From Candidatus Delongbacteria bacterium (GTDB lineage: Bacteria; CAIWAD01): a stretch of DNA of 64,000 bases. Below the pieces are notes generated by a model. That model ran no database searches. It was given only the letters and a program-made list of their open reading frames with translations, and was not told the DNA's origin. Location of the stretch: the NCBI GenBank assembly GCA_963663545.1, contig OY760505.1:1-64000 (forward strand), given 5' to 3'. Of this stretch, positions 12,235 to 35,962 are shown in pieces. Both the position numbers and the translations under genes were made by a program. Position 1 is the first letter of the stretch. Each line of letters opens with the position of its first letter.

Positions 12235-13011
12235 ATGGCAAACATCATCGCCTTAGCAAACCAGAAGGGCGGGGTTGGCAAGACCACCACCGCTGTTAAT
12301 CTGGCCGCGTGCATCGCGGCAGCGGAACGTCGTGTGCTGCTGGTGGATATGGACCCGCAGGCCAACGCCACTTCCGGCGTGGGCGTGGATCGTGATCCCC
12401 AGCGCCCTTGCGTCTACGAGGCGCTGCTGGACGCCAGTCGCAGCCACGACAGCATCGTCAAGACCAGCATGAGTTTCCTGGACCTGATGCCCAGCGACGT
12501 TCGTCTGGTGGGTGCCGAAGTGGAGCTGGTCAGCGCGCTGGCTCGCGAGTATCGGCTGCAGAAGGTGCTGGCCCAGGTGGGCGCTGACTACGACTACATC
12601 CTTATCGATTGCCCGCCCAGCCTGGGACTGCTGACCGTCAACACGCTGACGGCGGCGGACGGGGTGGTGATTCCCATTCAGGCCGAGTACTACGCCCTCG
12701 AAGGGCTCAGCCAGTTGCTGAATACCGTTGAGCTGGTACGCGACAGCCTGAATCCGCGCCTTGTGATACGCGGCGTGCTGTTGACCATGTACGACCAGCG
12801 CCTGCGCCTGTGCAACATGGTCCGCGAGGAGCTGGAAGCGCACTTCGGCGAGCAGCTCTATCACACCATCATTCCGCGTAACGTGAAGCTGGGCGAAGCC
12901 CCCAGCCACGGCAAGCCGATCCTTCTTTACGACGCCGGCAGCGCGGGAGCGCAGAATTACATCGCCCTGGCCCAGGAGATCCTCGATGAGCAAAGCGAAG
13001 CCGCTGGGTAA
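12235..13011 (+). CDS. parA: Chromosome partitioning ATPase ParA/Soj
   Basis: [10 protein letters not shown] deviant Walker [32 protein letters not shown]. Confidence 0.97.
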
Positions 13012-13861
13012 AGGCCTAAGCGCCCTGATCCAGAAAAAGGAAGAAGCCCCCCATCCGCAACCCGCAGACCAGGGCGGCGAGCGCGTCCGCGAGCTGGCGC
13101 TTGAGGAAGTGCGCGTCAACCCCGACCAGCCGCGCCGTGATTTCGACGGCGAAGCTCTGGACGAACTGACCGCCAGTGTGCGCGAGCAAGGTGTGTTACA
13201 GCCGATTCTGGTTTTCGCCGAACACGGCGGCTACACGATCATTGCCGGCGAGCGCCGCTATCGTGCCAGTGTGCGCGCGGGACGAAAGCGCATTCCCGCC
13301 CTCGTGCGCCCCAAACCCGAAGCCCGCGAACTGCTGCAGTTGGCGCTGATCGAGAACATTCAGCGCGAGGATCTGAACCCCCTCGATCTGGCCTCAGGCT
13401 ATCGTAGTCTGATTGAAGAATACGGCATGACCCAGGAGGAGCTGGCCACGGTTGTGGGCAAGAAGCGCGCCACCGTCGCCAACACACTGCGTCTGGTCAA
13501 GCTGCCCGCCGTGATCAAGGTCAGCCTCAAGAGCGGCGAAATCAGCATGGGGCATGCGCGCGCGCTGCTGGGTGTGGTCAGCGACGACGACAAAGTGCAT
13601 CTGTGGCAGATCTGCGTTCGCAAGCATTTAAGCGTGCGTCAACTCGAGGATCTAGTTCAGCGAAGCAAGCAGGAACCCGCGCCGGGCAAGCCGAAGGTGG
13701 TCAAACCCTTCGATATCCTTGAGGCGGAAGACCGCATTCGCGACAGCCTGGGCACCCGCGTACAGATTACGCCCAATCGCAACCGTGGCGCCATCAGCAT
13801 CAACTATGACAGCAAGGACGAGCTGGACCGCCTACTGGAGATGCTCACCAGCATATCCTAG
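12986..13861 (+). CDS. parB: Chromosome partitioning protein ParB/Spo0J
   Basis: [50 protein letters not shown]. Confidence 0.97.
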
Positions 13862-13920
13862 TGGCCGCTTTCTTCGTCCGCGGAGCGCAACTTCACCCAC
13901 CGAATCCTTGGGAGGTACCC

Positions 13921-15159
13921 GTGAAACTGATCCTCTTTGAAGACGATCGGGCCGGAGATTTCTACCCACTGACCGAGATGCACGCCGTCTGGGACTTGCG
14001 CGTCGGACTGGGTACGCTGCGTCAGCGCATCGAGTGGCGGCTGGCATTGCGCGCCGAGGGCGGCATCTGTCGCGATGAGCTTGCTGCTGTGGCGGCTGAG
14101 GAGGGTCTCGGAGCCCCCGAACTGAAGGCGGGCGAAGAGCTGCTGCTTGTCAACGCGCGCCTGCTGGACTTCGATCCGCAGATCGTCCAGTCGCTGGAGC
14201 TCGGTCAATGTCTGGTGCAGGAGGAGACGCTGCTGGCGGCGCGCCTGCACAGCGAGGATCTGGAGAGCTTCGTCGGCGCAGAGGGCGCGGAATCCATCGA
14301 GTTGGATGTGCTGGAACCGTCCGATCCGTGGCCGCTGGCATCTCGATTGTGGGAACTGGTGCACTACCAGCCCGAGGCTGTAGCCGCTGACTTGCCCTGG
14401 TGGGACGAGGCGACTGAATCCGGCTCTGCCGATCTTCCGGAAGGCGTGATCCACCAGGGCGGAGGCCAGTTGCGCCTTGGACGTGATACAAAGATTGCGC
14501 CTTTCGTAGTTATTGACAGCAGTGCGGGCGCTGTAGTCATTGACGACGGCGTTGAAGTAATGCCCTTCTGCTACATCGAAGGCCCGTGTTACATCGGCCC
14601 GAAGTGTCGGCTGAAAACGCATACGCGCCTCTACGGCGGAAGCCATCTGGGGCCCGTCTGCCGCATCGCCGGTGAAGTGGCCGAGAGCCTTCTTCTGGGC
14701 TACGCCAACAAGCAGCACGACGGTTTTCTGGGGCATGCGGTGCTGGGCGAATGGGTCAACCTGGGCGCCGACAGCAACAACAGCGATTTGAAGAACAACT
14801 ACGGCAACGTGCGCGTGAGCGTGCGCGGCGAAAGCGTCAATACCGGCGAGCGCTTTGTGGGGCTGATGATGGGCGACCACAGCAAATGCGGCATCAACAC
14901 CATGTTCAACACCGGCACCGTCTGTGGCGTCTTCGCCAACATTTGGGGCGGAGGTTTTCCTGCAAAGGAAATTCCGCCTTTCAGCTGGGGCGGCCCGCAG
15001 GATTCCGTGATCCAGTACAAACTGGAGCAGGCCCTGTCAACGGCGGCCACAGTGTGCGGACGACGCGGGCGCGAGTTCAGCCCCGCTCGCCAGGAACTAG
15101 TTCGCGTTCTCTTTCGTAGATACGGTTTTCAATTCTGGTCCCAGGAGGAGCAGGCATGA
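13921..15159 (+). CDS. GlmU-like putative sugar nucleotidyltransferase with hexapeptide repeats
   Basis: ILFED..FYPLT, ANKQHDGFLGH, LGADSNNSDLKNNY, GDHSKCGIN; RBS GGAGG before GTG 13921. Confidence 0.85.
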   Translation: MKLILFEDDRAGDFYPLTEMHAVWDLRVGLGTLRQRIEWRLALRAEGGICRDELAAVAAEEGLGAPELKAGEELLLVNARLLDFDPQIVQSLELGQCLVQEETLLAARLHSEDLESFVGAEGAESIELDVLEPSDPWPLASRLWELVHYQPEAVAADLPWWDEATESGSADLPEGVIHQGGGQLRLGRDTKIAPFVVIDSSAGAVVIDDGVEVMPFCYIEGPCYIGPKCRLKTHTRLYGGSHLGPVCRIAGEVAESLLLGYANKQHDGFLGHAVLGEWVNLGADSNNSDLKNNYGNVRVSVRGESVNTGERFVGLMMGDHSKCGINTMFNTGTVCGVFANIWGGGFPAKEIPPFSWGGPQDSVIQYKLEQALSTAATVCGRRGREFSPARQELVRVLFRRYGFQFWSQEEQA

Positions 15160-15758
15160 ACAGGACGAGCTTGTATCACCACATCGCCCTTGTGGCGTTG
15201 ATGGCGCTGACCCTTTTTTCTTTTGGTTGCAAGTCGAAGACCAGCCCGGTTGCGCTGAGTGACGAAACCGGTGTGGTGGCCGAAGTGGACAGCGCCGCGC
15301 TCGTACCACAGGAACTGGCCGTGGACAGCGCGTTGATCGCCGAAGAGGAACTGCTGATCAGCGAGCGCGAGCGTGCCCTGGAAGCCGAGCGCGTGCGCAA
15401 GCAGCAATACGATGCCGATCTGGCGACGATCAAGCCCATCTATTTCGACTTCGACCGCTCCCAGCTGCGCGGTGATGCCCGTGTTACACTGGACGCCAAC
15501 GGTCGTGTGCTGGAGCGTCAGAGCGCGTTGGAGCTCCTGATCGAGGGCCACTGCGACGAGAACGGTTCCGTGGCCTACAATCTGGCCTTGGGTGACCGTC
15601 GCGCAAAAGCGGCGCGCGATTATCTGGTGAACCTGGGCGTCGATGCCAGTCGCCTGCGGACGATTTCCTACGGCAAGAGCAAGCCCGCGGTGGTTGGCAA
15701 TAGCGAAGCGGCCTGGGCGAAGAACCGCCGCTGCGAATTCAAACCCGTTGAACAGTAG
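15156..15758 (+). CDS. pal: Peptidoglycan-associated lipoprotein
   Basis: Lipobox SFG-C; IYFDFD, IEGHCDE, YNLALGDRRA, ISYGK, NRR. Confidence 0.93.
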   Translation: MNRTSLYHHIALVALMALTLFSFGCKSKTSPVALSDETGVVAEVDSAALVPQELAVDSALIAEEELLISERERALEAERVRKQQYDADLATIKPIYFDFDRSQLRGDARVTLDANGRVLERQSALELLIEGHCDENGSVAYNLALGDRRAKAARDYLVNLGVDASRLRTISYGKSKPAVVGNSEAAWAKNRRCEFKPVEQ

Positions 15759-15767
15759 AGGCCTCGC

Positions 15768-16409
15768 ATGCAGTTGCTGAGCATCCTGCGCGATGCCACA
15801 CCCTTCTCACTGGCAATTCTGGCCTTGCTGGCGCTGGCCTCGCTTGTTTCATGGACGGTCATTTTTGAGCGCGCTGGCTTCTTTGCGCGCGCCAAACGTG
15901 CGGGTAGTGATTTCGCCCGGTTGGCAGCCAACTCAACTCGTATCACAGAGTTGCTGGAACTGGCGCAGCGGCATCCGGCTTCACTGGCTGCGCGTAGTTT
16001 GTATCACGCGTCACAGAGTATGCCGGAGAAGGCCTATGATGATTCGGCGCGCTGGGAGCAGCATCTGCAACGCGCGGGACTTCGCGAGCTGGAGCAGGGG
16101 CGTCGCTACCTGAGTCTGTTGGCTACCATGAGCTCGGCCAGTCCCTTTGTCGGGCTGCTGGGAACGGTCTGGGGCGTGATGGTGGCTTTTCTGCGCATCG
16201 GTTCCAGCCAGGGACAGGCTATGCTCGAGGTGGTCGGCCCCGGCATTGCCGAAGCGCTCATTGCAACGGTAGCGGGTCTGGCGACGGCCATTCCAGCGAC
16301 GGTGGCCTACAATTTCTTCCTGGCCGCACTGCGTCGTCAACAGCGCTTCATTGAGGATGCCGCCTCGGGTCTCCTGATGCTCGCAGCCGCCGAGGAGGAT
16401 CAGGCGTGA
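15768..16409 (+). CDS. tolQ: TolQ/ExbB proton-channel protein
   Basis: SPFVGLLGTVWGVM, PGIAEALIATVAGL. Confidence 0.88.
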   Translation: MQLLSILRDATPFSLAILALLALASLVSWTVIFERAGFFARAKRAGSDFARLAANSTRITELLELAQRHPASLAARSLYHASQSMPEKAYDDSARWEQHLQRAGLRELEQGRRYLSLLATMSSASPFVGLLGTVWGVMVAFLRIGSSQGQAMLEVVGPGIAEALIATVAGLATAIPATVAYNFFLAALRRQQRFIEDAASGLLMLAAAEEDQA

Positions 16410-16852
16410 AGCTTCACGTGGAAGAAGGCGAGCTTAGCGAGATCAACGTCACACCGCTCGTGGATGTCTTTCTGGTGCTGCTGGTGATCTTCATGATCAC
16501 CGCGCCCGTGCTGAAGACCGCGTTGGAAGTAGGTCTGCCGCCAGCGGACACCTCGGTTCCTCAGTTGGCGGGTGGTATTGTGGTAGAGCTCGATGCAGGC
16601 GGCAGTCTGATGGTGGATGGACGCGCTGTGGCACCCGTTGATCTGGTGGCGACACTGCACCAGAAGCACGCACGAGCAGCCGGTGATACAAGCGGCGTGC
16701 CCATCTTTCTGGCCGCAGACAAGCGTGCCCCTTACGGAGATGTAGTTGCAGTGCTGGATCGCATGCGCCTGGAGGGCTTTCCGGATGTGGGCCTGCTGAC
16801 CGATGAGAACGGTACGGCAAAGCAGAACTCGCGCGACAGGAAGCGGCGATGA
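16406..16852 (+). CDS. tolR: TolR/ExbD protein
   Basis: SEINVTPLVDVFLVLLVIFMITAP, AADKRAPYG. Confidence 0.88.
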   Translation: MKLHVEEGELSEINVTPLVDVFLVLLVIFMITAPVLKTALEVGLPPADTSVPQLAGGIVVELDAGGSLMVDGRAVAPVDLVATLHQKHARAAGDTSGVPIFLAADKRAPYGDVVAVLDRMRLEGFPDVGLLTDENGTAKQNSRDRKRR

Positions 16853-17706
16853 GTGTGATACAGGCAGAGCGCTCTATGCAAGACAAGGCCAGCGCGCGCT
16901 GGCCTTTTGTGCTCTCGCTGTGTCTTCACGCGGCAGCACTTCTGCTGTTGGGGCTGCGTTTGGAAATGCCTGCACCGGAGCCGCACTTCAGTTTGCGCAT
17001 GGTGCGTCTTGCCGGTGGTGGCAGCGGAAAACCGGGCTGGGCAACTGAGGCACCTGCCCCGGCTCCCGTGTCACAGCAGACGCCTGCTACGAAACCGCTA
17101 AGGGACAGTCGACCACAGCCGGAAGCACCGGTCGCAAAACCTGCAGCGAAACCAGCCCCCAGACAGCTGCCGACGAGTACAGCAAGCGTAGAGCGCGAAG
17201 CGCCCGTGTTACGCGATGAAACCACATCTACCACGCCAATTCCGGCTGAAACAGTGCAGCGAGAAGAGAGAGAAGGAACCACTGCGGAAACTGTGTCACA
17301 TACGAATGCGCCTGCGATAGCAAGTACAAACACTTCCTCCGACGATGCGGGCACAGGCAGGGAGCATACCCTGGTGACACAAGCCGGACCGGCCGGAGCG
17401 GGCCGGGGTGCTGTTGCCGATGAGCAGGGTCTGCCTGGACTCGGTGCCTGGCTAGGACGCGTCGAATCGCAGATTCAGCAACGCTTTCAGTATCCGGCAC
17501 GTGATACGGGCGCGCGTGCAGTGTTCCACTTCTACATCGAACGCGACGGCAGCGTGAGCGATCTGACTCTGACCCAGTCCAGCGAGCTGCCAGGCCTGGA
17601 TCACGCCGGTCGTAGCGCCATTACCCGCGCCGTCTGTCCGCCGCTGCCCGCCTCTTTCCGGCACAGCCGCTTGGGCGTCACCTTCACATTTGTGGACGAA
17701 CGATGA
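16849..17706 (+). CDS. TolA/TonB-family energy transducer
   Basis: SLCLH TM anchor, Pro/Ala/Thr-rich linker, TonB-C-like domain (IERDG..QSS..LD). Confidence 0.8.
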   Translation: MSVIQAERSMQDKASARWPFVLSLCLHAAALLLLGLRLEMPAPEPHFSLRMVRLAGGGSGKPGWATEAPAPAPVSQQTPATKPLRDSRPQPEAPVAKPAAKPAPRQLPTSTASVEREAPVLRDETTSTTPIPAETVQREEREGTTAETVSHTNAPAIASTNTSSDDAGTGREHTLVTQAGPAGAGRGAVADEQGLPGLGAWLGRVESQIQQRFQYPARDTGARAVFHFYIERDGSVSDLTLTQSSELPGLDHAGRSAITRAVCPPLPASFRHSRLGVTFTFVDER

Positions 17707-19028
17707 GAACCACTACTTCTTTGATCCTACTGCTGCAGTTGTTCCTGTGCTGTTTGCCCAAGGGATTGACGGCGCAGCTCATTTTTTCCGAGGGCGTTCC
17801 TGAGGTGCAGCTTGAGGCGCGAACGCTGAGCTATTTTCGCCCTACTCTGGTGTTTGACCCACCCGCTGCAGACGCTCCTGTGCAGGAGTTGTTTACGCGC
17901 CGCCTGCGCGAAGACCTTGTGCTGAGTGGCTACCTGTACGTTGTGGATCCGCAGGAGATGGATTCCAGCCTGGCTGCGCAAACCACTGTGCTGCACTGGG
18001 CCTATGCTGATGCCTTTGACACGAGCCCGATGCCCGCCTGGCAAGCGCACGCCACACTGCGTGCCGCAGAGGACGAGCAAGCCTGGGGCGAGTGGTTGCA
18101 GCCGGTGGGCGGACAGGGGGATCCACTGCTGCAGGCGGACGGCTTGGCGATTACCCTGCTGCGTGAACTTACCGGCTACGAACCTGTGCTGGATAGCCGC
18201 CTGCTCTATGTGGAACCCGCTGCCGAAGCCAGTCAGCTAGTGGCCGTCGATTTGCGCGGGGGCGGGCGCGAATACCTGACCCGCTCGGCGAGCTACAAAT
18301 ACTCACCGGCCTGGTCGCCTGATGCAGAGTGGCTGGCCTGGATCGTGATACGGCCCGGCACAGGTGCAGATCTCTTTGTTGCTTCAACCACCAAGGGAGG
18401 CACGAGAGCCGTTCTGGCCGGACCCGATTCCGAAGCCGCTCCCGCCTGGTCACCCGACGGCGAATGGCTGGCCTATGCCTCAACCGTGAGCGCTAACACA
18501 GACATCTATTTGCTGAGCGGCGCTTTTGCCCGCGGCGAGGAATCTCAGCCGGGCAGCCGCCGCCTTAGTTTCAGCCAAGGCATCGATACCAATCCCTCCT
18601 GGTCGCCGGACTCCCGCAGCCTGGTGTTCAGCAGCGATCGTGGCGGAAGTCAACAGTTGTACCTTGTGGGCGTAGAAGGCCTGGAGGAACGTCGCATCAG
18701 CTACTGGGGCGGCGCCTGCGACTGCCCAAGCTGGTCGCCCGACGGCGAGTGGATCGCCTTTGTGATGCGTGAAGGGAAAGGCTATCAGCTCTTTCTGACG
18801 CGTCCCGATGGCAGCGAACTGGTGCGTCTGAGCGACGAAGCCGGCAATCACTTCGATCCTGTCTGGTCGCCCGACAGCCAGCAGTTGGCCTACGGGTGGC
18901 GCGATCAGGTCTGGATTTGCTTTGCCGACGGTACTGGCAAACGCGTGCTTTGCAGCAAGGGGTTCAACCCGGTGTGGAGTCCGCGTTCTGCGCTGCGTGA
19001 TACAAGTCAATCTGAGTACGGGGAATAA
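17703..19028 (+). CDS. tolB: TolB-like beta-propeller
   Basis: Repeated PxWSPDG (PD40) motifs; tol operon context. Confidence 0.85.
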   Translation: MRTTTSLILLLQLFLCCLPKGLTAQLIFSEGVPEVQLEARTLSYFRPTLVFDPPAADAPVQELFTRRLREDLVLSGYLYVVDPQEMDSSLAAQTTVLHWAYADAFDTSPMPAWQAHATLRAAEDEQAWGEWLQPVGGQGDPLLQADGLAITLLRELTGYEPVLDSRLLYVEPAAEASQLVAVDLRGGGREYLTRSASYKYSPAWSPDAEWLAWIVIRPGTGADLFVASTTKGGTRAVLAGPDSEAAPAWSPDGEWLAYASTVSANTDIYLLSGAFARGEESQPGSRRLSFSQGIDTNPSWSPDSRSLVFSSDRGGSQQLYLVGVEGLEERRISYWGGACDCPSWSPDGEWIAFVMREGKGYQLFLTRPDGSELVRLSDEAGNHFDPVWSPDSQQLAYGWRDQVWICFADGTGKRVLCSKGFNPVWSPRSALRDTSQSEYGE

Positions 19029-19029
19029 C

Positions 19030-19866
19030 ATGAGCAGTGTTGTAGCACGCGTGATCCAACTATGTGGGCTGCTTTCCTTGATGTGGCTCGCTTCCTGTGC
19101 CAGCCGCGAAGAGGTGCTGGGTTTCCAGCAGGATCATCTGCGCATCCAGGAAGGACTGCAGGAGCAGCAGCACGCCCTGGCCCGCACTGACAGTTTGCTG
19201 CAGTTGCAGTTGGCCTACCTCAGCGAACGTGCCCACGAAAGCGAGTTGGTGTTACGCAGCCTCAAGGCCGATCAGTTGCAGACCGCAGAGGAGTTGCACA
19301 CTCTCATTGGCACCATTACAGCCTCGCTGGAAGACGCCAGCGTCTACAACCGCCGCCTGGCGCAGAAGGTAGACGAGCTCAACCTGATCCTGGCGCGGCA
19401 GGGATTGAGGCAGGAGCGCGACAGTCTGGCTGAAGATCCGGCCTGGCTTTACAATCAGGCGACCTTGGATCTTTATCGCGGCTTTCCCGAGTTGGCCCGT
19501 GCCGGCTTCCGTGAGTACCTGGCGCGTTTTCCCGAGGGAGAAGAGGCGGCCAACTGTCGTTACTGGATTGCCGACACCTGGATTAGTGAGCAGCAGGCCG
19601 ATTCGGCCCGTACTGTCCTGCGCGACTTCATTGCACAGTATCCGCAGCACAAGCGAAAACCCGCCGCACTCTTGCGCTTGGGACTGCTGGAAGCCGCTGC
19701 CGGGGAAGCCGACGCTGCCCATGAAACGCTGAATCTTGTGATACAGGAAGCTCCCGAAAGCGCCGAAGCGCGGCTGGCCCGGGAACGCCTGCTGGAGTGG
19801 CAGGAACAGACCGCAGCCGACGGCAACCAGGGAGAACACCCGACAACTAAGGAGCCCACACCATGA
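19030..19866 (+). CDS. cpoB: CpoB/YbgF-like TPR lipoprotein
   Basis: Lipobox LAS-C, coiled coil, TPR with YW and P..K.PAALL. Confidence 0.75.
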   Translation: MSSVVARVIQLCGLLSLMWLASCASREEVLGFQQDHLRIQEGLQEQQHALARTDSLLQLQLAYLSERAHESELVLRSLKADQLQTAEELHTLIGTITASLEDASVYNRRLAQKVDELNLILARQGLRQERDSLAEDPAWLYNQATLDLYRGFPELARAGFREYLARFPEGEEAANCRYWIADTWISEQQADSARTVLRDFIAQYPQHKRKPAALLRLGLLEAAAGEADAAHETLNLVIQEAPESAEARLARERLLEWQEQTAADGNQGEHPTTKEPTP

Positions 19867-20240
19867 GCGCACCACGTCACGGTCTGGATTATGTCGAGAT
19901 CACCTGCAAGGATCTGGAAGCCTGTCGCAGCTTCTACCAAGATGCCTTTGACTGGAAGTTCAGCGAGTTCGGCAGCGACTACCTGAGTTTCAACGATGGT
20001 CGTATGCGCGGCGGACTGGTTCGCGCCGAAGAAGCGAAACTTGGCGGTCCCCTGTTGGTGCTCTACAGCGACGATCTGCTCTTCTCGACACGCCGTGTGA
20101 TTGCGGCGGGCGGACGTATCACGCGGGATATCTTTGCGTTCCCGGGTGGATTCCGCTTTCACTTTAGCGATCCGGAAGGGCGCGAGCTGGCTGTGTGGTC
20201 GGATCAGGATCCCAGCGATAGCACGCCCATGCAACCCTGA
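19863..20240 (+). CDS. VOC/glyoxalase family protein
   Basis: DYVEI..FY..AFDW...FPGGFRFHFSDPEGRELAVWS. Confidence 0.9.
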   Translation: MSAPRHGLDYVEITCKDLEACRSFYQDAFDWKFSEFGSDYLSFNDGRMRGGLVRAEEAKLGGPLLVLYSDDLLFSTRRVIAAGGRITRDIFAFPGGFRFHFSDPEGRELAVWSDQDPSDSTPMQP

Positions 20241-20243
20241 GGG

Positions 20244-24287: not shown

Positions 24288-25446
24288 TGCGGCCCTTACG
24301 ATGTCGCTCCTGAACGGGGAGCAGGTTCTTCCCGCCTGGTCCGCGCGTTCTGCCGAGGCTGCGGGGGTAATGGTTGTCATTCCCCACTGCGGCGGAATGC
24401 AGATCCTGGATGCCTGTCTGCGCAGTCTGGCGCAAAGTCGGCATCCTATGCGCGTGCTGCTGGTGGACAATGCTTCGCCCGACGAGAGCGTGCAGATGCT
24501 GCAGCGCCGTTTTCCCTGGGTGGAACTCGCTGAGCAGAAGCACAACCTGGGCTTCGCCGGTGGCTGCAACGCTGGTTTGCGTCTGGCGCTTCAGGAGAGA
24601 GACTGCCGCTGGGCGCTGCTGCTGAACAACGACACCACCGTAGAGGCCGATTGGCTGGACGAACTGCTCAAGGTGGGCGAGAGCCGCGAAGACATTGCCG
24701 CTGTGCAGCCGCTGTTGCTTTCCATTCCCAATCCGGGCATGCTGGATTACAGCGGTGCCGCCGGTGGACAACTGGACGTCTGTGCTTTTCCCTTTGCGCT
24801 GGGACGTATTGCCGATCGCATCGAGGAGGACAGCGGTTTCTACCACGAACCACGGGCCTTGGCCTGGGCTTCGGGCACTGCCTGTCTACTGCGCTGTGAT
24901 GCCCTGCGCGAATCCGGACTACTGGAAGAGAGCTTCTTCATGCACATGGAGGAGATCGATCTGGACTGGCGACTGCGTCTGTTGGGCTGGCACCTGCTGT
25001 CGGCGCCTGCCGCGCGCGTGTATCACCACAGTGGTTACAGTCTGGGCGCCGGCCGACCGCTGAAGGTCTTTCTAAATCACCGCAACAGCCTGCGTATGCT
25101 TGTGCGCAACGCGGCTTGTGTCACGCTGTGGCGCCGTCTTCCGCAGAGACTGCTGCTCGATCTGCTGGCCATTGTTCATTATACCCTCAAAGGTCGTCCG
25201 GATCATAGCCTGGCGGCGCTGAAAGGGCTAGGGTCCTTTCTGGTGGGACTTCCCGCCACTTTGCGTGAGCGTCGACAGATTCAGCAAGGTCGTCGTGTGG
25301 CCGAGGCGGAGATCCAAGGACAGCACTATCCGGGTTCCATTGCACTGGCGGCCTTTGTGCATGGTGCGAAGACGTGTTCCGACTTGAACTGGCAGCCCCC
25401 GCTTGCAGGAGAGCTGCCCCACTTCAGGAGAGGCAATGAGCGCTGA
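24280..25446 (+). CDS. Glycosyltransferase family 2
   Basis: VDNAS, NLGFAGGCN, LLNNDT, FMHMEEIDL. Confidence 0.9.
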   Translation: MSDAALTMSLLNGEQVLPAWSARSAEAAGVMVVIPHCGGMQILDACLRSLAQSRHPMRVLLVDNASPDESVQMLQRRFPWVELAEQKHNLGFAGGCNAGLRLALQERDCRWALLLNNDTTVEADWLDELLKVGESREDIAAVQPLLLSIPNPGMLDYSGAAGGQLDVCAFPFALGRIADRIEEDSGFYHEPRALAWASGTACLLRCDALRESGLLEESFFMHMEEIDLDWRLRLLGWHLLSAPAARVYHHSGYSLGAGRPLKVFLNHRNSLRMLVRNAACVTLWRRLPQRLLLDLLAIVHYTLKGRPDHSLAALKGLGSFLVGLPATLRERRQIQQGRRVAEAEIQGQHYPGSIALAAFVHGAKTCSDLNWQPPLAGELPHFRRGNER

Positions 25447-26200
25447 GATCCGCTTGAGCGTCGTGATTCCGGCCTACAACGAAGAGCAGCGTATCGCTCC
25501 CAGTCTGCGCAAGGCCGTGGAAGTGCTGGCGCGCCTGGTGCCTGAATTCGAGGTGCTGGTGGTGGATGACGGCTCACGGGACAGAACAGTGGACGTCGCT
25601 CGTGCTGCGGTAGAAGAAAGTGCCGGGGGTGCGGGGCGTTTTCGTGCTTTGATCAACGAGAAGAATTTGGGCAAAGGCGGCGCGGTGCGGCGCGGTATGT
25701 TGGACGCACGTGGCCATTACGTGCTGTTTTGTGATGCGGACGAGAGCACGCCCATGAGTAGCATCGAACGCTTTCTGCCCGAGATGGACGCCGACAAGCC
25801 TGTTGTCATCGGCACGCGCAAGAATCAAGACGCGCACATTGCCCGGCATCAACCCTGGTTGCGCGAAACCATGGGCAAGGGCTTCACCTGGCTAGCCAAA
25901 TGCCTCATTGGTGTACAGGTGAGCGATTTTACCTGCGGCTTCAAGGTCTTCCGCCGTGATGCAGCCCAGGCCATCTTCAGTCGCCAGACGCTGGCCGACT
26001 GGAGCTTTGACGCGGAGATCCTCTTTCTGGCCGGTCACCTGGGCTATGCCATTTGCGAAGTTCCCGTGACCTGGACCAACGACGAAGATACACGCGTGCG
26101 TCTTTTGCGTGATACATGGGACAGCTTGCTGGGGCTGCTGACGATTCGTCGCAAGAAGTTGCGCGGTGAGTACGGCGAAGCCCGGACCGGAGGTGCGTGA
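25436..26200 (+). CDS. Polyprenyl-phosphate glycosyltransferase (dolichyl-P-glucose synthase-like GT2)
   Basis: VIPAYNEE, VDDGSRD, GKGGAVRRGM, FCDAD, DFTCGFK, WSFDAE. Confidence 0.88.
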   Translation: MSAEIRLSVVIPAYNEEQRIAPSLRKAVEVLARLVPEFEVLVVDDGSRDRTVDVARAAVEESAGGAGRFRALINEKNLGKGGAVRRGMLDARGHYVLFCDADESTPMSSIERFLPEMDADKPVVIGTRKNQDAHIARHQPWLRETMGKGFTWLAKCLIGVQVSDFTCGFKVFRRDAAQAIFSRQTLADWSFDAEILFLAGHLGYAICEVPVTWTNDEDTRVRLLRDTWDSLLGLLTIRRKKLRGEYGEARTGGA

Positions 26201-28569
26201 TGCAGGAGACTCTGACACAGCAAGCCGGGAAAACAGCAGCGGAGCCTGGTACGTCGTCCCGGGAGTGGGCCTTGTGGCGGGTCACAATTCTCGGACGCCG
26301 TCTGCGCGTCGATCTGCTGCTGGTCCTTGTGCTGTTGCTGGCGGCTGGTGTACGCCTCTTTGCACTGAACTGGGGCTGGACGGATTTTTCGCCCCTGCCC
26401 GCGCAAGAGCGTCCCGCGCAGACCTTCAACAATTTCCATCCGGATGAGGCCAGCAACCTGCGTGTAGCACGCAATATGTACACCAGCGGCAACTGGCGTC
26501 CCACGGGCGAGCTCTACGGCCAAACCTTCGATTACAGTCTCTACGGCGCGGCGCCCATTTATCTGCACATTGCGGCCACTTGGGTCAGCAGCCTCTTTGG
26601 CGATTTCACGCCCTTCGACCTGGATGACGAATACAGCGAGATGCGCAGCTACGTGGCTGTGCGCTGGCTGACCGCACTGCTGGGGCTGGCTTGTGTTCCC
26701 CTCGTCTACTGGGCGGCACTTCTTTTGTATGGACGACGTGCGGCCCTGCTGGCGGCGTTGTTGCTGGCTTTTTCGGCCTTTCACGCTCAGAGCGGGCGCT
26801 TTGGCACCGTGGACATTCCGATGGTGTTTTTCTCCTGCTGGAGTTTTGCCCACAGCGCGCGTTATCTGCGCTACGGCAAATGGCGCGACATTCTGCTGGC
26901 TGCCCTTGCGGCGGGATTGGCGCTGGCCTCCAAGATCAACTCCCTGTTGATCGTTGTTCCCATCATCGCGGCGGAATTGATGCGCGGAGCCGAAGTGCTA
27001 CATGTGCAACAAGGTGATACAAAACGCTGGTGGTTGACCGCTGGCTGGCTGCGCTACTTGTTTTCGCTACGCCTCGTTAGCGCTGGAGTGCTGACGATTG
27101 CCGTGTTCCTGATCCTCAATCCCTATGTCTTTCTGGACTTCCACAACTACCTCTATGGCAACCAGGCCTTCGGCCTGATGGACAATGTGCGCAACGTGCG
27201 TGGCGAATTCTTCAAGACCTTCCAGATCCAGTTCGAGCAGATCAACCCGTGGAGCTTCCTCGTGACGAAGGTACTGCCCTGGGCCTGTGGTCTGCCGCAG
27301 ATGTTGTTGGCAGGACTGGGACTGCTGTTTATGCTGTGGCGTCGTAAGCGCGCCGATCTGTTGCTGCTGGCCTGGCTGCTACCCATGTTAGCGATGACGG
27401 GCAATGCGCAGGTCATGTACATGCGCTACGCACTTCCGCTGTTACCGCCCATTGCGCTGGCGTCTTCCATTCTGTTGGATGGCCTGATGGATGGACGCTG
27501 GCTGGAGCCAGGATCGGGAAGGACACTCGTTCGTGTATCACGCAGTGTTGGAGTTGTGCTGACGCTGGTCGCGGTGATACTAAGCGGAGCCTGGACCTGC
27601 GCGCTGGCCTCCGTGCACCGCGTCGAAGACAGCCGGATCAGCGCCGGTCGCTATCTGGCAGAAGTACTCCCCGACGGCGTCGGCCTCTTGCACGAGCGCA
27701 GCGCTAACAGCATCAAGCCCGTGATCCACATGCCGCGCTACAACAACGTGTGCCTGGAAGGTCCCACGGTGATACACGCCACGGGCAATCTGGCCGCCGA
27801 TCAGCTCGACTACCTGGCCGGTCGTTTGGATCAGGTACAGTGGGCGGCCATTCTCGAGAGCAACCGCAAGCTTGGATTCGAGCGAAGCGGGCGTTATCCG
27901 GGTCCTGAACTCTTTTACCGCGACCTTTTCGCGGGCAAGCTGGGCTTTGTCGTCGACACCGTTTTTCAGACACTGCCGCGCATTGCCGGTATGGCCATCG
28001 ACGATCGTCCGGCGGAGTTCAGCCTGCGCTACTACGATCATGATGCGATCTATGTCTTTCGTCGCACAGAGCCGACTCGGCTGTGGGAGCAGGTGAAGTT
28101 GCTGAAGGAGGAGTTACGCGGTCTTGAGCGCGCCCCCGACTTCTACGCTGCACGCGCGCAGAGCGCGCTCGCTGCCGGCAATCTGCAGCAGGCACGGGAC
28201 CTGGCCGCGCAGGGTCTGCAGTGGGGACAGCAAACCATGGTGCCCGGAGAGCGTGCGCCACGCGGGGCTGCCGAATTCTATGGCCTTCTGGGCCAGGTCT
28301 TTGCTTTGAGTGCGGGACGGCAACTGGAAGCGGGGCAAGGGGCTCAAGTGCAGCAAAGCCTGCAGCAGGCGCAACAGTTTTTGCAGCAAGCTCTGCAGCT
28401 AGACGCACTCAAGCCCGGAAGTCGCGCCGCTGACCTGGGCTTCATGTTCCTGCAGTTTGGTCAGCGCGAAGCTGCTCTGGCGCTGCTCCAACAGGCACGC
28501 GGTGCCGCCCTTTCCGATCCGGCTTTGGATGAGCTGCAAGTGCAGCTTAGCCTGGAGATGCAACCATGA
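26200..28569 (+). CDS. GT-C (ArnT/PMT-like, family 39) membrane glycosyltransferase with TPR-like tail
   Basis: FHPDE, many TM helices, FGTVD, LASK, MRYALP. Confidence 0.8.
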   Translation: MQETLTQQAGKTAAEPGTSSREWALWRVTILGRRLRVDLLLVLVLLLAAGVRLFALNWGWTDFSPLPAQERPAQTFNNFHPDEASNLRVARNMYTSGNWRPTGELYGQTFDYSLYGAAPIYLHIAATWVSSLFGDFTPFDLDDEYSEMRSYVAVRWLTALLGLACVPLVYWAALLLYGRRAALLAALLLAFSAFHAQSGRFGTVDIPMVFFSCWSFAHSARYLRYGKWRDILLAALAAGLALASKINSLLIVVPIIAAELMRGAEVLHVQQGDTKRWWLTAGWLRYLFSLRLVSAGVLTIAVFLILNPYVFLDFHNYLYGNQAFGLMDNVRNVRGEFFKTFQIQFEQINPWSFLVTKVLPWACGLPQMLLAGLGLLFMLWRRKRADLLLLAWLLPMLAMTGNAQVMYMRYALPLLPPIALASSILLDGLMDGRWLEPGSGRTLVRVSRSVGVVLTLVAVILSGAWTCALASVHRVEDSRISAGRYLAEVLPDGVGLLHERSANSIKPVIHMPRYNNVCLEGPTVIHATGNLAADQLDYLAGRLDQVQWAAILESNRKLGFERSGRYPGPELFYRDLFAGKLGFVVDTVFQTLPRIAGMAIDDRPAEFSLRYYDHDAIYVFRRTEPTRLWEQVKLLKEELRGLERAPDFYAARAQSALAAGNLQQARDLAAQGLQWGQQTMVPGERAPRGAAEFYGLLGQVFALSAGRQLEAGQGAQVQQSLQQAQQFLQQALQLDALKPGSRAADLGFMFLQFGQREAALALLQQARGAALSDPALDELQVQLSLEMQP

Positions 28570-29597
28570 AGAAGGTTCTGACACGATTGATTCCGCTGCT
28601 GCTGCTTGTACTGACGCTTGGGTGCAGCAAGCCGCCGGCCTTTGGCGATATGTTTCGTGTCGCCATTTTTGCGGACGACGATACCTGGAAAAAAGTGCAA
28701 CCGGCGGTGGAGGAGGTCTTCAACGCACGCTGGATCACGCCTCAGGACGAGCGCCAGATCGAGTTTCTGCGTGCTGATCCGGCTGAGCTGCAGGAGTTCT
28801 TTAATCGCCGCGACTTGCTGTTGATCATGTGTGGCGAGGCGGAAGGACCCGTGGGTGAGTTTCTGCAGCAGGCGCTTTCGTCCGATGTGCGCTCGCGCAT
28901 TCAGCGCGAAGAGGGCTTTCTCTTCAAGCGCGATGATGCCTTTGCCCGCGGACAACGCGTGGTCATTTGCGCGGCGCCGAACCTGCTCTCCTTCCTAACG
29001 CAATTCAAAGCGCGCGGAGACGAAATTCGCGGTTTGTTCATTGAGCACAATCGTCAGGTGCAAGCAGAGTACTTGTGGCGGGAGGAGGCATCGCAGGAAT
29101 GCGCCGACAGCCTGTTTAACTCCAGTGGTCTTAGCTTGCGCGTGCCGCAGGAGTGGTTCGTGGTACAGGATAGCGCCGAGCCGCGTTTTCTGCGCCTGCG
29201 TGCCTTGAGTCCCGACCGCTGGATCACCGTGCATTGGGTTGACGGCGACGACAGCCTGCGCGGAAGCGAAGACGGCCTGCGTGAAGTACGCCAGCGTCTG
29301 GGGCGCGCTTACTGGGACAAAGACTACAGCGAAAAGGACTGGGGACGCTTCAGCGCCTGCGAACTGGCCGGGCATCCGGCGCAACTCTTCGAGGGCTTGT
29401 GGGGCACGGACGAGTATCTGGGGGGAGGCCCCTTCCTTTTCTGGTCGCTTTACATGCCCGCCGAAGGCGAGCGGCCAGCGCGGACGTATTATATTGACGC
29501 CGCGGTGCTTAATCCTGCTGGTCCGAAGTCGCCGCTTCTGCACCAGCTCAGCACCCTTGTGAATACCCTGCAAGTGCAACCGCTCAACGAGGAATGA
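28566..29597 (+). CDS. DUF4837-like lipoprotein
   Basis: Lipobox TLG-C, TPQDE, FARGQ, GLW...GGGPF. Confidence 0.65.
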   Translation: MKKVLTRLIPLLLLVLTLGCSKPPAFGDMFRVAIFADDDTWKKVQPAVEEVFNARWITPQDERQIEFLRADPAELQEFFNRRDLLLIMCGEAEGPVGEFLQQALSSDVRSRIQREEGFLFKRDDAFARGQRVVICAAPNLLSFLTQFKARGDEIRGLFIEHNRQVQAEYLWREEASQECADSLFNSSGLSLRVPQEWFVVQDSAEPRFLRLRALSPDRWITVHWVDGDDSLRGSEDGLREVRQRLGRAYWDKDYSEKDWGRFSACELAGHPAQLFEGLWGTDEYLGGGPFLFWSLYMPAEGERPARTYYIDAAVLNPAGPKSPLLHQLSTLVNTLQVQPLNEE

Positions 29598-29604
29598 TGC
29601 CCGC

Positions 29605-30069
29605 ATGACACATCGCGTCCTGATTCTCATCGGATCCGAGAGCGACCGCGAGACCTTCAACGCATCGCTGCCTTTTTACGAGTACTTCGGCATTCAGGCG
29701 GAGATCATCGTATCCAGCGCGCATCGCAATGCGGCTCGTACAGCGGAGTTGGCGATGACGGCCCGCGAAAAGGGGTATTGTGCCCTTGTCTGCGGAGCGG
29801 GTATGGCGGCGCATTTGGCGGGCGTAGTCGCCGCGCACAGCACGCTGCCGGTGATCGGCGTGCCGCTGGATGCAGGCGGCTTGGGAGGCATGGATTCGCT
29901 GCTGGCCACGGTGCAGATGCCGGCGGGAATTCCAGTGGCAACCCTGGCCATCGGCAAAGCGGGAGCTCGCAACGCGGCCGTATTGGTGGCACGCATTTTA
30001 TCCCTGGGCGATCGCGCACTGGTCGCGCGTCTCGATGAGTTTATGGCGCAGGGAGCCAGCCTCAAGTGA
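29605..30069 (+). CDS. purE: N5-CAIR mutase
   Basis: [34 protein letters not shown]. Confidence 0.95.
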
Positions 30070-30974
30070 AGGCGCGTGTGTTACTGACAGGCTGCCACGG
30101 GCGCTTGGGCCAGCATTTGTTGCGCAGATTGCTGCCCAGCTTCAGTGTGCTGGGCGTTGGCGTGGAAGAGCACAGTTTTGTCGCACATCCCGATTTCCAC
30201 TATGCGCGAGTTGAGAGCGTGGGCCGACGCGATTTCCGCCCGCTCTTTCAGGATTTCCACCCGGACTACGTGCTGAACGCGGCAGCCTGGACCGACGTCG
30301 ATGGAGCGGAGGGCCACCGCGACGCCTGCTGGAAGATCAACGTCGACCTGGTGCGCACGCTGCAAGAGTGCAGCCGCTCGCGCAATGTCTGGCTGGGGCA
30401 GCCCAGCACCGACTATGTCTTTTCAGGCGGCGGCGCCCGTGAAGTTGACGATCGTCCCGAGTCGGTGGGCGTGTATGCCCAGAGCAAGCTGGCAGCCGAG
30501 AATCTGCTGCGCGGCAGCGGACAGCCGGTGGGCGTCTTTCGCACCAGCGTACTCTACGGAAAAGGCTACCGGCTGAAGACCGATTTCTGCAGCTGGGTGG
30601 CCGAAGGCCTGAGCGAGGGACGCACCTTGCGTGTCGTCACCGACCAGATCTCCAATGCCTGTTGGGCGATGGAGTTGGCGACAGTCATGATAACGGCGAT
30701 GGAACGCAGACGCACGGGCGTGTATCACGTCGCTTCGCCGGAAATTGTATCACGCTTTGCCCTGGCCCGGCAGATTGCCACTCTGCTGGGAGTGGATCCG
30801 GAACAGATTCAGCCCGCAGTGACGGCGGAGTTGAATCAATTGGCTGCGCGGCCGTTGGACGGTGGCCTTTTGACCCGACGCAGCGAACAAGCTCTCGGCC
30901 TGCGATTCCGTCCTCTGGCGGAAGCTCTGAAGGCCTGGCACGAGGATCGTCCCGAAACTTGGTCACTCAACTGA
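30066..30974 (+). CDS. dTDP-4-dehydrorhamnose reductase-like SDR
   Basis: [34 protein letters not shown]. Confidence 0.85.
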
Positions 30975-30984
30975 GGATGGTGAG

Positions 30985-31710
30985 TTGAGCAGTATCACAC
31001 GCGTACTGGTAATTGTGCCGACCTACGACGAAGTCGACAATGTCGAGCGCATCGCTGCACAAATTCTTGCTCAGGATGAGCGACTCGACCTGTTGATTGT
31101 GGACGACAACAGCCCCGACGGCACGGGCGAGCTGGCCGACAACATGTCCGCCGCCAATGGCCGTATTCACGTGATACATCGCGCGGGCAAGCTGGGACTG
31201 GGAACCGCCTACGTGGCCGGTTTCAAGTGGGCCATTGCGCAGGGCTACGACGCCGTTTGCGAAATGGACGCCGACTTCTCGCATGACCCCAATGTGCTCA
31301 AGGTTTTCCTCAAGGAAATCGAAGACCACGACCTGGTGATAGGCAGTCGGTACAAGACGGGCGTGAACGTGGTCAACTGGCCGCTTTCGCGTCTGCTGCT
31401 GTCCTACGGCGCCAGCATCTACACGCGCGTGATCACCGGTCTGCCCATTCACGATCCGACGGCGGGATTCAAAATCTTCCGCCGCGCCACACTGGAACAG
31501 CTCGACCTGGACGAGATCCGTTCGGGCGGCTATAGCTTCCAGATCGAAGTGCACTTCAAAGTCTGGCGCAAAGGTCTGCGCATTCACGAAGTGCCCATCA
31601 TTTTCTACGATCGCACTCACGGTACCAGCAAGATGTCCAAGGCCATCGTGCGCGAAGCCGTCTGGATGGTGTGGAAGCTCAAGCTGCTGGCGCTGCTGGG
31701 CCGCTTGTAG
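30985..31710 (+). CDS. Polyprenol monophosphomannose synthase (Ppm1/DPM1-like GT2)
   Basis: VDDNSPDGTG, KLGLGTAY, MDADFSHDP, GYSFQIE, SKMS. Confidence 0.9.
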   Translation: MSSITRVLVIVPTYDEVDNVERIAAQILAQDERLDLLIVDDNSPDGTGELADNMSAANGRIHVIHRAGKLGLGTAYVAGFKWAIAQGYDAVCEMDADFSHDPNVLKVFLKEIEDHDLVIGSRYKTGVNVVNWPLSRLLLSYGASIYTRVITGLPIHDPTAGFKIFRRATLEQLDLDEIRSGGYSFQIEVHFKVWRKGLRIHEVPIIFYDRTHGTSKMSKAIVREAVWMVWKLKLLALLGRL

Positions 31711-31727
31711 CGGGAAGGAGAGTTCCT

Positions 31728-32690
31728 ATGGCTGTTGAGGCCATTCTTGATTTTGAAAAGCCCATTTTGGAATTGGAGCGCCGCCTGGAGGAGGTGCGTG
31801 CGCTAGCTCGCGACGCGGGCATCAATTCCACCCGCGAGATCAACCAGCTCGAGAAGAAGCTGGCCAAATTGCGCGCGGACACCTATCAGCGGCTGAGCGG
31901 TTGGCAGACGGTGCAGCTGGCGCGTCATCCGCGCCGCCCCTACACGCTGGATTACGTCGAGCGCATCTGCAGCAGCTTTCAGGAACTGCACGGCGATCGC
32001 GCCTTTGCCGACGACCACAGTATCGTGGCCGGTCTGGGACGCATCGGTGACACAAATCTGGCGATCATCGGACACCAGAAGGGGCGTGATACAAAGTCCA
32101 ATATCTATCGCAATTTCGGCATGCCGCAGCCCGAGGGCTACCGCAAGGCGCTGCGTGTGATGCAGACCGCCGAGCGTTTCGGTCTGCCGGTGTTGACCTT
32201 GGTGGATACTTCAGGCGCCTATCCCGGTCTGGGTGCGGAAGCGCGTGGGCAGGCTGAGGCTATTGCCCGTAATCTCTTCGAAATGGCCCGTTTGAAAGTG
32301 CCCATCGTCACCGTTGTTGTGGGCGAAGGCGGATCTGGTGGCGCATTGGCGCTGGCCGTCGCCGACCGTGTGTTGATGTTCCGCCACTCGATTTACAGCG
32401 TGATCAGCCCCGAGGGCTGCGCGTCCATTCTTTTCCGCGACGCGGGCAAAGCCCAGGAGGCCGCCGAGGCCATGCAGATCACCGCTGGCAGATTGTTAGA
32501 GCGTGGCATCGTCGACGAGGTACTCGATGAGCCCGAAGGTGGCGCACATCGCGATTGGGACGCAGCTGCCCGAACCTTGCAAGCCGCAGTGATGGGCCAT
32601 TTCAACGAGCTGAGCGCCCTGCCAGTGGACGAGCTGGTGACGCGGCGCATCGCCAAGTTTGATGCGATGGGAGAGTGGGAGCTTGCCTGA
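31728..32690 (+). CDS. accA: Acetyl-CoA carboxylase carboxyltransferase alpha subunit
   Basis: LDFEKPI, ARHPRRP, HQKGRDTK, RNFGMP.PEGYRKA, GEGGSGGAL. Confidence 0.97.
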   Translation: MAVEAILDFEKPILELERRLEEVRALARDAGINSTREINQLEKKLAKLRADTYQRLSGWQTVQLARHPRRPYTLDYVERICSSFQELHGDRAFADDHSIVAGLGRIGDTNLAIIGHQKGRDTKSNIYRNFGMPQPEGYRKALRVMQTAERFGLPVLTLVDTSGAYPGLGAEARGQAEAIARNLFEMARLKVPIVTVVVGEGGSGGALALAVADRVLMFRHSIYSVISPEGCASILFRDAGKAQEAAEAMQITAGRLLERGIVDEVLDEPEGGAHRDWDAAARTLQAAVMGHFNELSALPVDELVTRRIAKFDAMGEWELA

Positions 32691-33171
32691 GTCCCGTCTT
32701 CCGGCCGCCGACAGTGCAGGCTTTCGCGTCATCGATCGCATTCGCGTGCGCTACGCCGAGACGGACCAGATGGGCTACGCCTACTACGGCCACGCGGCCA
32801 CCTGGTTCGAGCTGGCGCGCACAGGCCTTCTCAGGCTTGCCGGGCGTACTTATCGCAGCATCGAAGAGCAGGATGAACTCATTTTGCCTGTGCTCGAAAT
32901 GAATATTGTGTATCACCAGGCAGCCCACTACGACGATGAACTCACGCTGCTGGCGCGCTGCGATGTATCACAGGATCACCGCGGTCGTCCTTCCCGTCTG
33001 CGCTTCCGCATGGAGTTCCAGATTTGCCGTGACACAGAGCTGCTCTACGAGGGCCACACGCTGCACTGCTTCCTCAGGCGTGATACACGAAGACCGGCCA
33101 ACATGCCTTCGTGGTTCCTGGAGCTTTTGCAGCAGTTGAACAGTAGCAGAGGAGATCAGACTCATGCATGA
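32683..33171 (+). CDS. YbgC/FadM-family acyl-CoA thioesterase
   Basis: RVRYAETDQMG..YYG...WFELAR, YDDEL. Confidence 0.88.
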   Translation: MPESRLPAADSAGFRVIDRIRVRYAETDQMGYAYYGHAATWFELARTGLLRLAGRTYRSIEEQDELILPVLEMNIVYHQAAHYDDELTLLARCDVSQDHRGRPSRLRFRMEFQICRDTELLYEGHTLHCFLRRDTRRPANMPSWFLELLQQLNSSRGDQTHA

Positions 33172-35954: not shown

Positions 35955-35962
35955 GACCGCGC

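Follow-up and report, generated by a model that had tools for sequence, protein, structure and literature searches.

A hyper-abundant octamer overrides codon choice in the genome of a Candidatus Delongbacteria bacterium

The first 64,000 nt (hereafter the window) of the single-contig, 3.72 Mb genome of a Candidatus Delongbacteria bacterium (G000; 56.7% GC, 98.9% complete) carry many copies of the octamer GTGATACA. An initial annotation of this DNA had noticed that the word is written into genes with otherwise rare codons, and had proposed that selection or molecular drive at the DNA level overrides codon bias, as in uptake sequences. It had thereby described the trace that a new hyper-abundant genomic word has left in coding regions, in a small, poorly known phylum; the word is of the kind represented by the uptake signal sequences (USS) of Pasteurellaceae, the DNA uptake sequences (DUS) of Neisseriaceae and HIP1 of cyanobacteria. 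That a DNA-level drive or selection exists behind GTGATACA is near certain.

The window holds 45 copies of GTGATACA (29 on the forward and 16 on the reverse strand) where 0.74 are expected, and none of 100 dinucleotide-preserving shuffles reaches 45. Genome-wide, it is the commonest 8-mer, with 3149 copies (1599 forward, 1550 reverse). This count is a 93-fold excess over the 33.7 copies expected from an order-4 Markov model, which was fitted to the sequence that remained after GTGATACA and its one-mismatch neighbours had been masked. The 7-base core GTGATAC occurs 4934 times. The word is non-palindromic (its reverse complement is TGTATCAC), and its outer bases GT...AC, often extended to TGT...ACA, form a small inverted repeat.

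Specificity is graded, much like that of a small position weight matrix. Positions G1, T2 and C7 are strict, since their changed forms lie at background (0.7-2.0x), and tolerated changes stay enriched (G3>A 8x, A4>T 13.6x, A4>C 4x, T5>G 8x). The T5C variant reaches 1141 copies (18.7x) and the A8G variant 1102 copies (25x). No one-mismatch neighbour is depleted genome-wide under the masked Markov null. Directly 5' of the word an A is rare (6% overall, 3% in spacers), and beyond position -1 the information content of the flanks is approximately zero. Genes contain 2729 of the 3149 copies, spacers 371, and the other 49 span gene boundaries; genes and spacers are equally dense in the word (0.836/kb and 0.814/kb, respectively), and position along genes is uniform. 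Even spacing can be rejected, as counts per 10 kb are over-dispersed (mean 13.3, variance 40.3).

Genes were taken from our own caller of open reading frames (ORFs), which is based on codon usage and yielded 2671 genes covering 87.8% of the genome. The caller made errors, such as choosing the antisense shadow of a TPR gene at 18922-19866 and missing a giant repeat gene, but the effects on codon choice far exceed what such errors could produce. Four codons that can be used to spell the word are rare overall: the share of ATA among Ile codons is 7.2%, that of TCA among Ser codons 8.0%, that of GTA among Val codons 12.4% and that of ACA among Thr codons 20%. Within genes, sense copies are spelled nGT GAT ACA (979) or GTG ATA CAn (526), and antisense copies nnT GTA TCA Cnn (604), nTG TAT CAC (444) or TGT ATC ACn (176); the frame that would read TGA has 0 copies. 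When synonymous codons were shuffled in 20 rounds, keeping each protein and the codon usage of each gene, 123+-8 sense and 160+-9 antisense copies were expected, compared with 1509 and 1226 observed.

The same override is evident in each class of peptide context that can encode the word. Contexts are spelled as GTGATACA in 530 of 750 cases for V-I-[HQ], 979 of 1809 for [CRSG]-D-T, 176 of 199 for C-I-T, 445 of 506 for [LMV]-Y-H and 605 of 1733 for x-V-S-[LPHQR], giving a range of 35-88% across classes. Specifically, ATA accounts for 550 of the 750 Ile codons (73.3%) in V-I-[HQ] and for 3101 of 49752 (6.2%) elsewhere, and ACA for 1210 of the 1809 Thr codons (66.9%) in [CRSG]-D-T as opposed to 10081 of 54768 (18.4%) elsewhere. 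Because these codons are unequally frequent in permissive and other contexts, the proposal of a DNA-level force stands, and both the shuffles and the context spellings support it. Aligned coding DNA of relatives agrees: the word-rich relative G002 spells 187 of 283 contexts (ATA 24/30 in V-I-[HQ], 96/3368 elsewhere), whereas a word-poor sister genus spells 1 of 213 (G005 0/60, G006 1/128, G008 0/25).

Single sites in the window illustrate this pattern. The features concerned are as follows.

1..64000, whole window: 43 of the 45 GTGATACA copies in genes and 2 intergenic or at gene boundaries; in-gene copies by frame are sense 1, 13; antisense 1, 12; sense 0, 9; antisense 2, 8; antisense 0, 1
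12235..13011, + strand: parA (AAA_31/ParA ATPase), by domain match
12763..12770, + strand: variant GTGATACG (core GTGATAC), GTG ATA CGc = V-I-R, A8G class
31728..32690, + strand: accA (ACCA carboxyltransferase), by domain match
32047..32054, + strand: variant GTGACACA, gGT GAC ACA in accA, T5C class
32086..32093, + strand: GTGATACA, cGT GAT ACA = R-D-T of the conserved KGRDTK (which starts at 32079) in accA
1450..1457, + strand: GTG ATA CAc = V-I-H, in an FG-GAP repeat protein gene (1075-3882)
16855..16862, + strand: GTG ATA CAg = V-I-Q, in frame
19738..19745, + strand: GTG ATA CAg = V-I-Q, in frame in a TPR/YfiO-like ORF (18922-19866)
27769..27776, + strand: GTG ATA CAc = V-I-H, in frame
31171..31178, + strand: GTG ATA CAt = V-I-H, in frame
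39559..39566, + strand: GTG ATA CAt = V-I-H, in frame
50084..50091, + strand: GTG ATA CAc = V-I-H, in a GAF/histidine-kinase gene (49718-51517)
50411..50418, + strand: GTG ATA CAg = V-I-Q, in the same GAF/histidine-kinase gene
27721..27728, + strand: unconverted GTG ATC CAc = V-I-H
44635..44642, + strand: unconverted GTG ATC CAg = V-I-Q
32659..33171, + strand: 4HBT thioesterase ORF, by domain match
32909..32916, - strand: GTGATACA copy, antisense in the thioesterase ORF
32964..32971, - strand: GTGATACA copy, antisense in the thioesterase ORF
33029..33036, + strand: variant GTGACACA in the thioesterase ORF
33080..33087, + strand: GTGATACA copy, sense in the thioesterase ORF

All positions named in the initial annotation proved correct when re-read in the sequence. 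Its statement that parA has a single ATA among 14 Ile codons holds for a start at ATG 12235 (ATC 10, ATT 3, ATA 1, the lone ATA at 12766-12768 within GTGATACG); read from an upstream TTG at 12160, the gene would instead hold two ATA among 16. In accA the only two ACA codons, at 32052 and 32091, do lie within GTGACACA and GTGATACA, respectively. The eight GTG ATA CAn sites listed are all in frame as V-I-H or V-I-Q, seven of them within called genes, and the word was rightly described as not saturated, given the in-frame GTG ATC CA contexts at 27721 and 44635. Four copies had been reported in the thioesterase gene, within a 180-bp span; three of these are exact and the fourth is the variant GTGACACA. 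A 207-aa ORF (19252-19875, - strand) without a Pfam match shadows the real TPR/YfiO-like gene (18922-19866, + strand) and is a long spurious ORF. Contigs from four public runs of two studies cover window positions 13101-33100, and the pieces shown from X3-X5 are identical to the window, with no other letters listed; neither polymorphism nor a methylation signal emerged from these contigs.

The word has also left an imprint on proteins. Tripeptides that it can encode are over-represented in the proteome, with CIT at 5.25x, CDT 4.84x, VIH 3.48x, VYH 3.16x, RDT 3.0x, VIQ 2.9x, LYH 2.84x and GDT 2.5x; CIT and CDT rank first among all tripeptides, and CIT, CDT, VIH, VYH, RDT and VIQ are all in the top 10. 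Orthologues in relatives were defined as best tblastn hits (at least 60% coverage and at least 40% identity) in a 93-450 kb sample per relative, and are thus not reciprocal whole-genome best hits. Aligned orthologues have 46 V-I-[HQ] in G000 against 14 in the word-poor G006, and 93 [CRSG]-D-T against 47. Residues at codons determined by the word are identical to those of G006 in 170 of 400 cases (42.5%), compared with a background of 59.7% (odds ratio (OR) 0.50, p 3e-12), and they are likewise less conserved relative to G005 (OR 0.41), G008 (OR 0.43) and G002 (OR 0.52).

Among 275 contexts of G000 that align to the word-poor genus, 35 are permissive there too and 19 of these are spelled as GTGATACA; the remaining 240 are non-permissive there and 165 of them are spelled. 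Since both classes contain spelled contexts, the word is reached by two routes, namely synonymous choice, as in the KGRDTK of accA, and amino-acid replacement. Most aligned copies sit where the peptide differs from that of the word-poor genus. Codon-usage and tripeptide statistics of these genomes are distorted by a DNA-level signal.

The concentration of copies in genes and the excess of the encoded tripeptides could suggest that there is no DNA-level feature at all, and that GTGATACA is a by-product of peptide or codon selection, a mobile repeat, or an artefact of assembly or base calling. We give such explanations practically no probability, and the data refute them. The enrichment extends to five reading frames on the two strands, whose peptides are unrelated; spacers are as densely populated as genes, and flanks are unconserved. 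The word is present in independent assemblies of six species, and it encodes the right residues where these are conserved (KGRDTK of accA). A repeat of the repetitive extragenic palindrome (REP) or miniature inverted-repeat transposable element (MITE) type is ruled out by the unconserved flanks and by the location of most copies in genes with frame-specific spellings.

Where constraint is strong, the word is held back. The initial annotation had it written into conserved genes, and it is indeed present there, yet at about half the density seen in poorly conserved genes: across 744 genes, density is 0.88-0.99/kb below 60% identity to relatives and 0.48-0.53/kb above. The ribosomal-protein/EF-Tu operon lies in an 11.8 kb stretch (L209; G000 3054903-3066715; L14 at 3060951) without any GTGATAC core. 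None of the 7 contexts in it spells the word, and 1.3% of its codons are the four rare ones, compared with 2.8% genome-wide. The absence of GTGATACA from this operon indicates that translational selection wins there, and that selection on codons and proteins can prevail over the word. Other word-free stretches of normal GC are also poor in rare codons (e.g. 2882397-2894639 and 3299099-3313043) and may contain highly expressed genes. In the 43 gaps longer than 6 kb in the native part of the genome, 9 of 123 contexts are spelled, as opposed to 2720 of 4895 in the bulk. Spacers differ by type, the word favouring the side of gene ends, with 1.37/kb in tail-to-tail, 0.97/kb in tandem and 0.47/kb in head-to-head arrangements, and those of 20-100 bp reach 2.75/kb.

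A motif-free 6.6 kb segment at 291079-297735 was considered as an rRNA operon, but it has 0 Rfam matches and belongs to a giant repeat-protein gene. This 2697-aa ORF (L208:349-8442; G000 290349-298442, - strand) consists of approximately 39 tandem 141-bp (47-aa) repeats with 63% GC. It has 0 copies of GTGATACA, but GTGTCAC occurs in every repeat unit.

Acquired DNA lacks the word. Gaps longer than 6 kb number 55 where 1.7 are expected under a Poisson model. The last ~190 kb of the contig (L185-L194; G000 3533001-3721866) is a mosaic of acquired DNA that carries IS110 and four IS200-like transposases, TnpB, Thoeris TIR, Fic, HNH, RHS, HsdM, phage Rha and MoxR ATPases. In its last 128 kb (46-49% GC), 0 of 53 contexts are spelled as GTGATACA. 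Within the mosaic, a native islet, dnaX-recR-pgsA-pgpA-cinA-ligT-recA (~3553673-3560981), has normal density, with 14 cores in 5 kb, and its RecA is 83% identical to that of G002 and 71% to that of family f2. The word thus tells native from acquired DNA in practice, exposing both the ~190 kb mosaic and the recA islet. The contig end may be chimeric. Some housekeeping-like genes of the mosaic (xseA, a CCA/poly(A) polymerase and adenosine deaminase) have second copies elsewhere in the genome (37-59% identical). The low-GC acquired region also encodes a 356-aa DnaA-like protein (Bac_DnaA ATPase with a C-terminal HTH; L190:9781-10848; G000 3642778-3643848, - strand), with a MoxR-type AAA ATPase gene on either side.

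In this phylum, which consists of a single class here, 12 species genomes fall into two families. Copies of GTGATACA, with those of its backwards-read control in brackets, number 3149 (36) in G000, 2460 (21) in G002, 1004 (40) in G009, 1030 (24) in G010, 809 (8) in G004, 408 (25) in G003, 137 (17) in G001 and 524 (13) in G011, whose genome is 67% complete. Genus g6 has 131, 99, 45 and 29 copies (controls 11, 5, 11 and 22), and 19 genomes outside the phylum have 15-95. In sampled DNA, GTGATACA is the top 8-mer in G002 (58.5% GC, 0.99/kb) and in G009 of the other family (50.7% GC, 0.38/kb); its forms head the list in G004 (65% GC), and no dominant 8-mer of any kind appears in g6 (67-68% GC). Overall, the word is the top or near-top 8-mer in five further genomes of the phylum; in the GC-rich genera its frequency is only slightly raised or at background level. 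This gradient over 12 species, from ~0.01 to 0.85 copies/kb and from 51 to 68% GC, suits a phylogenetic-profile search for a reader protein. The 93 kb sample of G003 (L167-L173) additionally contains the main-word variants GTGAGACA and GTGTGACA and a word family of its own around GGACGGTGCC (36-37 copies, 0.4/kb), which could represent either a second signal or a repeat element.

Individual positions are shared to different extents. Between G000 and G002, 28 of 181 sites carry the word at the same place; residues are identical at 39 sites, and 28 of these carry GTGATACA, so that sharing arises because the peptides are conserved there. In the congeners G009 and G010, whose nucleotide identity is 70-74%, 7 of 9 sites have persisted, compared with 1709 of 21861 8-mer windows (7.8%; OR 41, p 6e-7), although the sample is small.

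Our tentative first choice is that GTGATACA is a lineage-specific 'own-DNA' word that acts like a DNA uptake or transformation signal. The data show that a sequence-specific DNA-level process holds it at ~0.85 copies/kb in native DNA, both here and in several relatives, acting only on DNA long resident in the lineage and letting copies accumulate where constraint is weak. On the uptake reading, competent cells would preferentially take up or recombine kin DNA bearing the word, and mutations that create or improve it would spread via homologous replacement, a form of molecular drive. This drive would be balanced by purifying selection on proteins and translation. The word is kept down only where selection is strong, in the ribosomal-protein operon, at well-conserved residues and in promoter-side spacers.

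The genome encodes parts that such a process might use, including a pilin, a PilT-like ATPase, PilM, PilO, PilQ, PilB, PilC, PilD, a ComEA-like protein, ComEC, DprA and RecA. The type IV pilus is complete; its cluster (L184:2806-18833; G000 2732806-2748836) contains the genes for the pilin, the PilT-like ATPase, PilM, PilO, the secretin, a 995-aa Big_1 protein, PilB, PilC and PilD, and three minor-pilin-like ORFs lie between pilT and pilM (L184:4492-7536). In Neisseria, the dedicated receptor for the uptake sequence is the minor pilin ComP. The pilus cluster is itself word-poor: a range of +-10 kb holds 11 cores for an expectation of 27, and the secretin gene has 0. Uptake-linked drive is ranked first on the strength of these genes (pilus, ComEA, ComEC, DprA and RecA) together with the signatures that the available excerpts of PMC2817400 report for USS and DUS. 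The likeness to uptake sequences drawn in the initial annotation was therefore apt, the same signatures appearing in those excerpts, with the uptake role itself resting on analogy.

Several observations weigh against an uptake signal. Competence genes are near-universal in 13 genomes (ComEC in 12, secretin in 12, ComEA-type HhH in 13), word-poor relatives included, and consequently they discriminate nothing. Close inverted pairs of DUS serve as terminators in Neisseria, but those of GTGATACA (within 100 bp) occur at approximately the Poisson expectation in all four orientations, even if single pairs do exist (e.g. at 2161015), and spacers overall hold no more of the word than genes do. Within single families, known uptake sequences diverge into dialects, whereas GTGATACA is identical across two families whose aligned proteins are ~54-59% identical. 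What is available of PMC3630211 points the same way with regard to dialects. Finally, the retention of 7 of 9 sites between G009 and G010 is a pattern that PMC5861425, in its accessible portions, reads for HIP1 as evidence of selection over replenishment.

The main rival of the uptake reading is an in-cell function similar to one proposed for HIP1, in which a methylase, a protein that organizes the nucleoid or chromosome, or a recombination cofactor would bind or modify GTGATACA; density and positions would be selected, and any link to transformation would be indirect. We consider this function doubtful but well worth weighing. The sites kept between G009 and G010 speak for it, as does the unchanged word across the phylum, a property of HIP1 as well in the excerpts of PMC5861425 and PMC13756078. 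The 93-fold excess lies inside the 15- to 300-fold range that the former gives for HIP1, and the inverted repeat GT...AC would suit a dimeric binder. However, GTGATACA is not palindromic, positions in the deeper comparison with G002 are mostly unshared, and even cover is not required, since the word is missing from highly expressed stretches such as the ribosomal-protein operon.

No methylase that tracks the word was found, one of seven methylase-like genes having been profiled across relatives. Six of the seven hold 0-1 copy of the 7-base core. The exception is the Eco57I-like gene (1575136-1576860), with three core copies and a native-looking context. All 8 genomes of family f1 carry it, those of the word-poor genus among them; the 3 word-rich f2 genomes lack it, save for a single weak hit (E 5e-6). 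It thus follows family f1 and not the word, which weakens a methylase link. According to the available part of PMC13756078, HIP1 itself is now proposed to aid transformation, so that the in-cell and uptake readings may converge.

Biased repair or gene conversion within the cell could also restore or create GTGATACA without any uptake bias or function. Such a process would explain the codon override, the preference for weakly constrained sites, the persistence between G009 and G010 and the absence from recently acquired DNA. We nonetheless judge it unlikely, as resident multi-copy IS200/IS110 elements and the 128 kb low-GC tail, with none of its contexts converted, have escaped it, and we know of no enzyme with such an 8-base asymmetric specificity. 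Very-short-patch repair in particular is rejected: a Vsr homologue has 0 matches in the 98.9% complete genome, the deamination products ATGATACA and GTGATATA stand at 1.0x and 1.3x and GTAATACA at 8x, and no neighbour is depleted.

An abundant, non-palindromic octamer that is missing from foreign DNA also recalls polar signals such as Chi, for RecBCD/AddAB, or the FtsK-orienting polar sequences (KOPS). RecC is encoded in the genome, and the word leans slightly towards the leading strand (1749 leading, 1386 lagging, ratio 1.26). This ratio is ordinary for the base composition, since 8-mers of the same composition span 0.45-1.95 (5th-95th percentiles) and 27% of them have a ratio of at least 1.26. 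Moreover, all 8 f1 relatives have RecC, those of the word-poor genus among them, and none of the 3 word-rich f2 genomes does, two of these being 94-97% complete. The density of Chi is well below one copy per 1.2 kb at 93x. A polar role is therefore highly improbable.

The word also lies one base from what we take to be the half-site of the canonical parS consensus. It was rejected as a parS half-site because the T5A variant is at background (83 copies, 78 expected) and two GTGATACA copies are never joined head to head as a palindrome; each half of the genome's own parS-like palindrome departs from GTGATACA at two positions. A perfect copy of that palindrome, TGTTCCACGTGGAACA, is found at L195:16728 (G000 1921728), and a near copy lies at 1919826. 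From GC skew and the orientation of genes, the origin is predicted near 1.945 Mb and the terminus near 0.125 Mb. The distance of parA and parB (window 12235-13861) is ~110 kb to this terminus and 1.9 Mb to parS.

If GTGATACA is a true uptake or kin-recognition signal, which is conceivable, these bacteria would be naturally transformable and would sort kin from foreign DNA by an 8-base word, whose density would intrinsically mark DNA as native or acquired; the word would in this way predict natural competence in an uncultured lineage. It would then be the first such signal in a candidate phylum that is represented almost entirely by metagenome assemblies, and one unchanged phylum-wide. Our literature search, in which supplements were not covered, found no paper joining GTGATACA with 'uptake sequence', and among the matches listed for GTGATACA alone the hits looked primer-like or otherwise unrelated.

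Few cases are known of a short word imposed genome-wide against codon bias, namely USS, DUS and HIP1, and their origin is debated. GTGATACA adds a clean new case that is asymmetric, unusually saturated (up to 88% of permissive contexts), built from rare codons and capable of rewriting the proteome. Chi and KOPS are likewise asymmetric octamers over-represented in native DNA, but GTGATACA is far denser and shows neither meaningful strand polarity nor co-occurrence with RecC. HIP1 (GCGATCGC) shares with it hyper-abundance as an octamer, phylum-level conservation and the keeping of sites between genomes (7 of 9 here, in a small sample), and differs in being palindromic. In the accessible text of PMC5861425, the over-representation of HIP1 ranges from 15- to 300-fold, and its sites show conservation from one genome to another. 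A periodicity of 10-90 kb has also been reported. Excerpts of PMC13756078 describe its recognition by two methylases, DmtA and DmtC, and, along with those of a preprint (bioRxiv 10.1101/2024.09.10.611283), propose that it is an uptake or transformation signal.

The resemblance to USS and DUS is broader. Like them, GTGATACA is short and non-palindromic and occurs thousands of times, on either strand (~0.85/kb here), with inflated tripeptides, a preference for weakly conserved residues and genes, absence from genes without homologues, graded specificity, enriched near-matches, no polarity and an encoded competence machinery; the class is defined by biased uptake and a receptor, both of which would be predictions for GTGATACA. 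The available excerpts of PMC2817400 report for USS and DUS inflated tripeptides, copies at poorly conserved residues and genes, and absence from genes without homologues in relatives, with 1471, 765 and 1892 copies tabulated for three genomes. The frames of those uptake words correlate with preferred codons, whereas GTGATACA is made of rare ones (ATA, TCA, GTA, ACA). It is also shorter, with 8 bases and a 7-base core, is unchanged across its small phylum without dialects, and has neither an overall enrichment in spacers nor an excess of inverted pairs.

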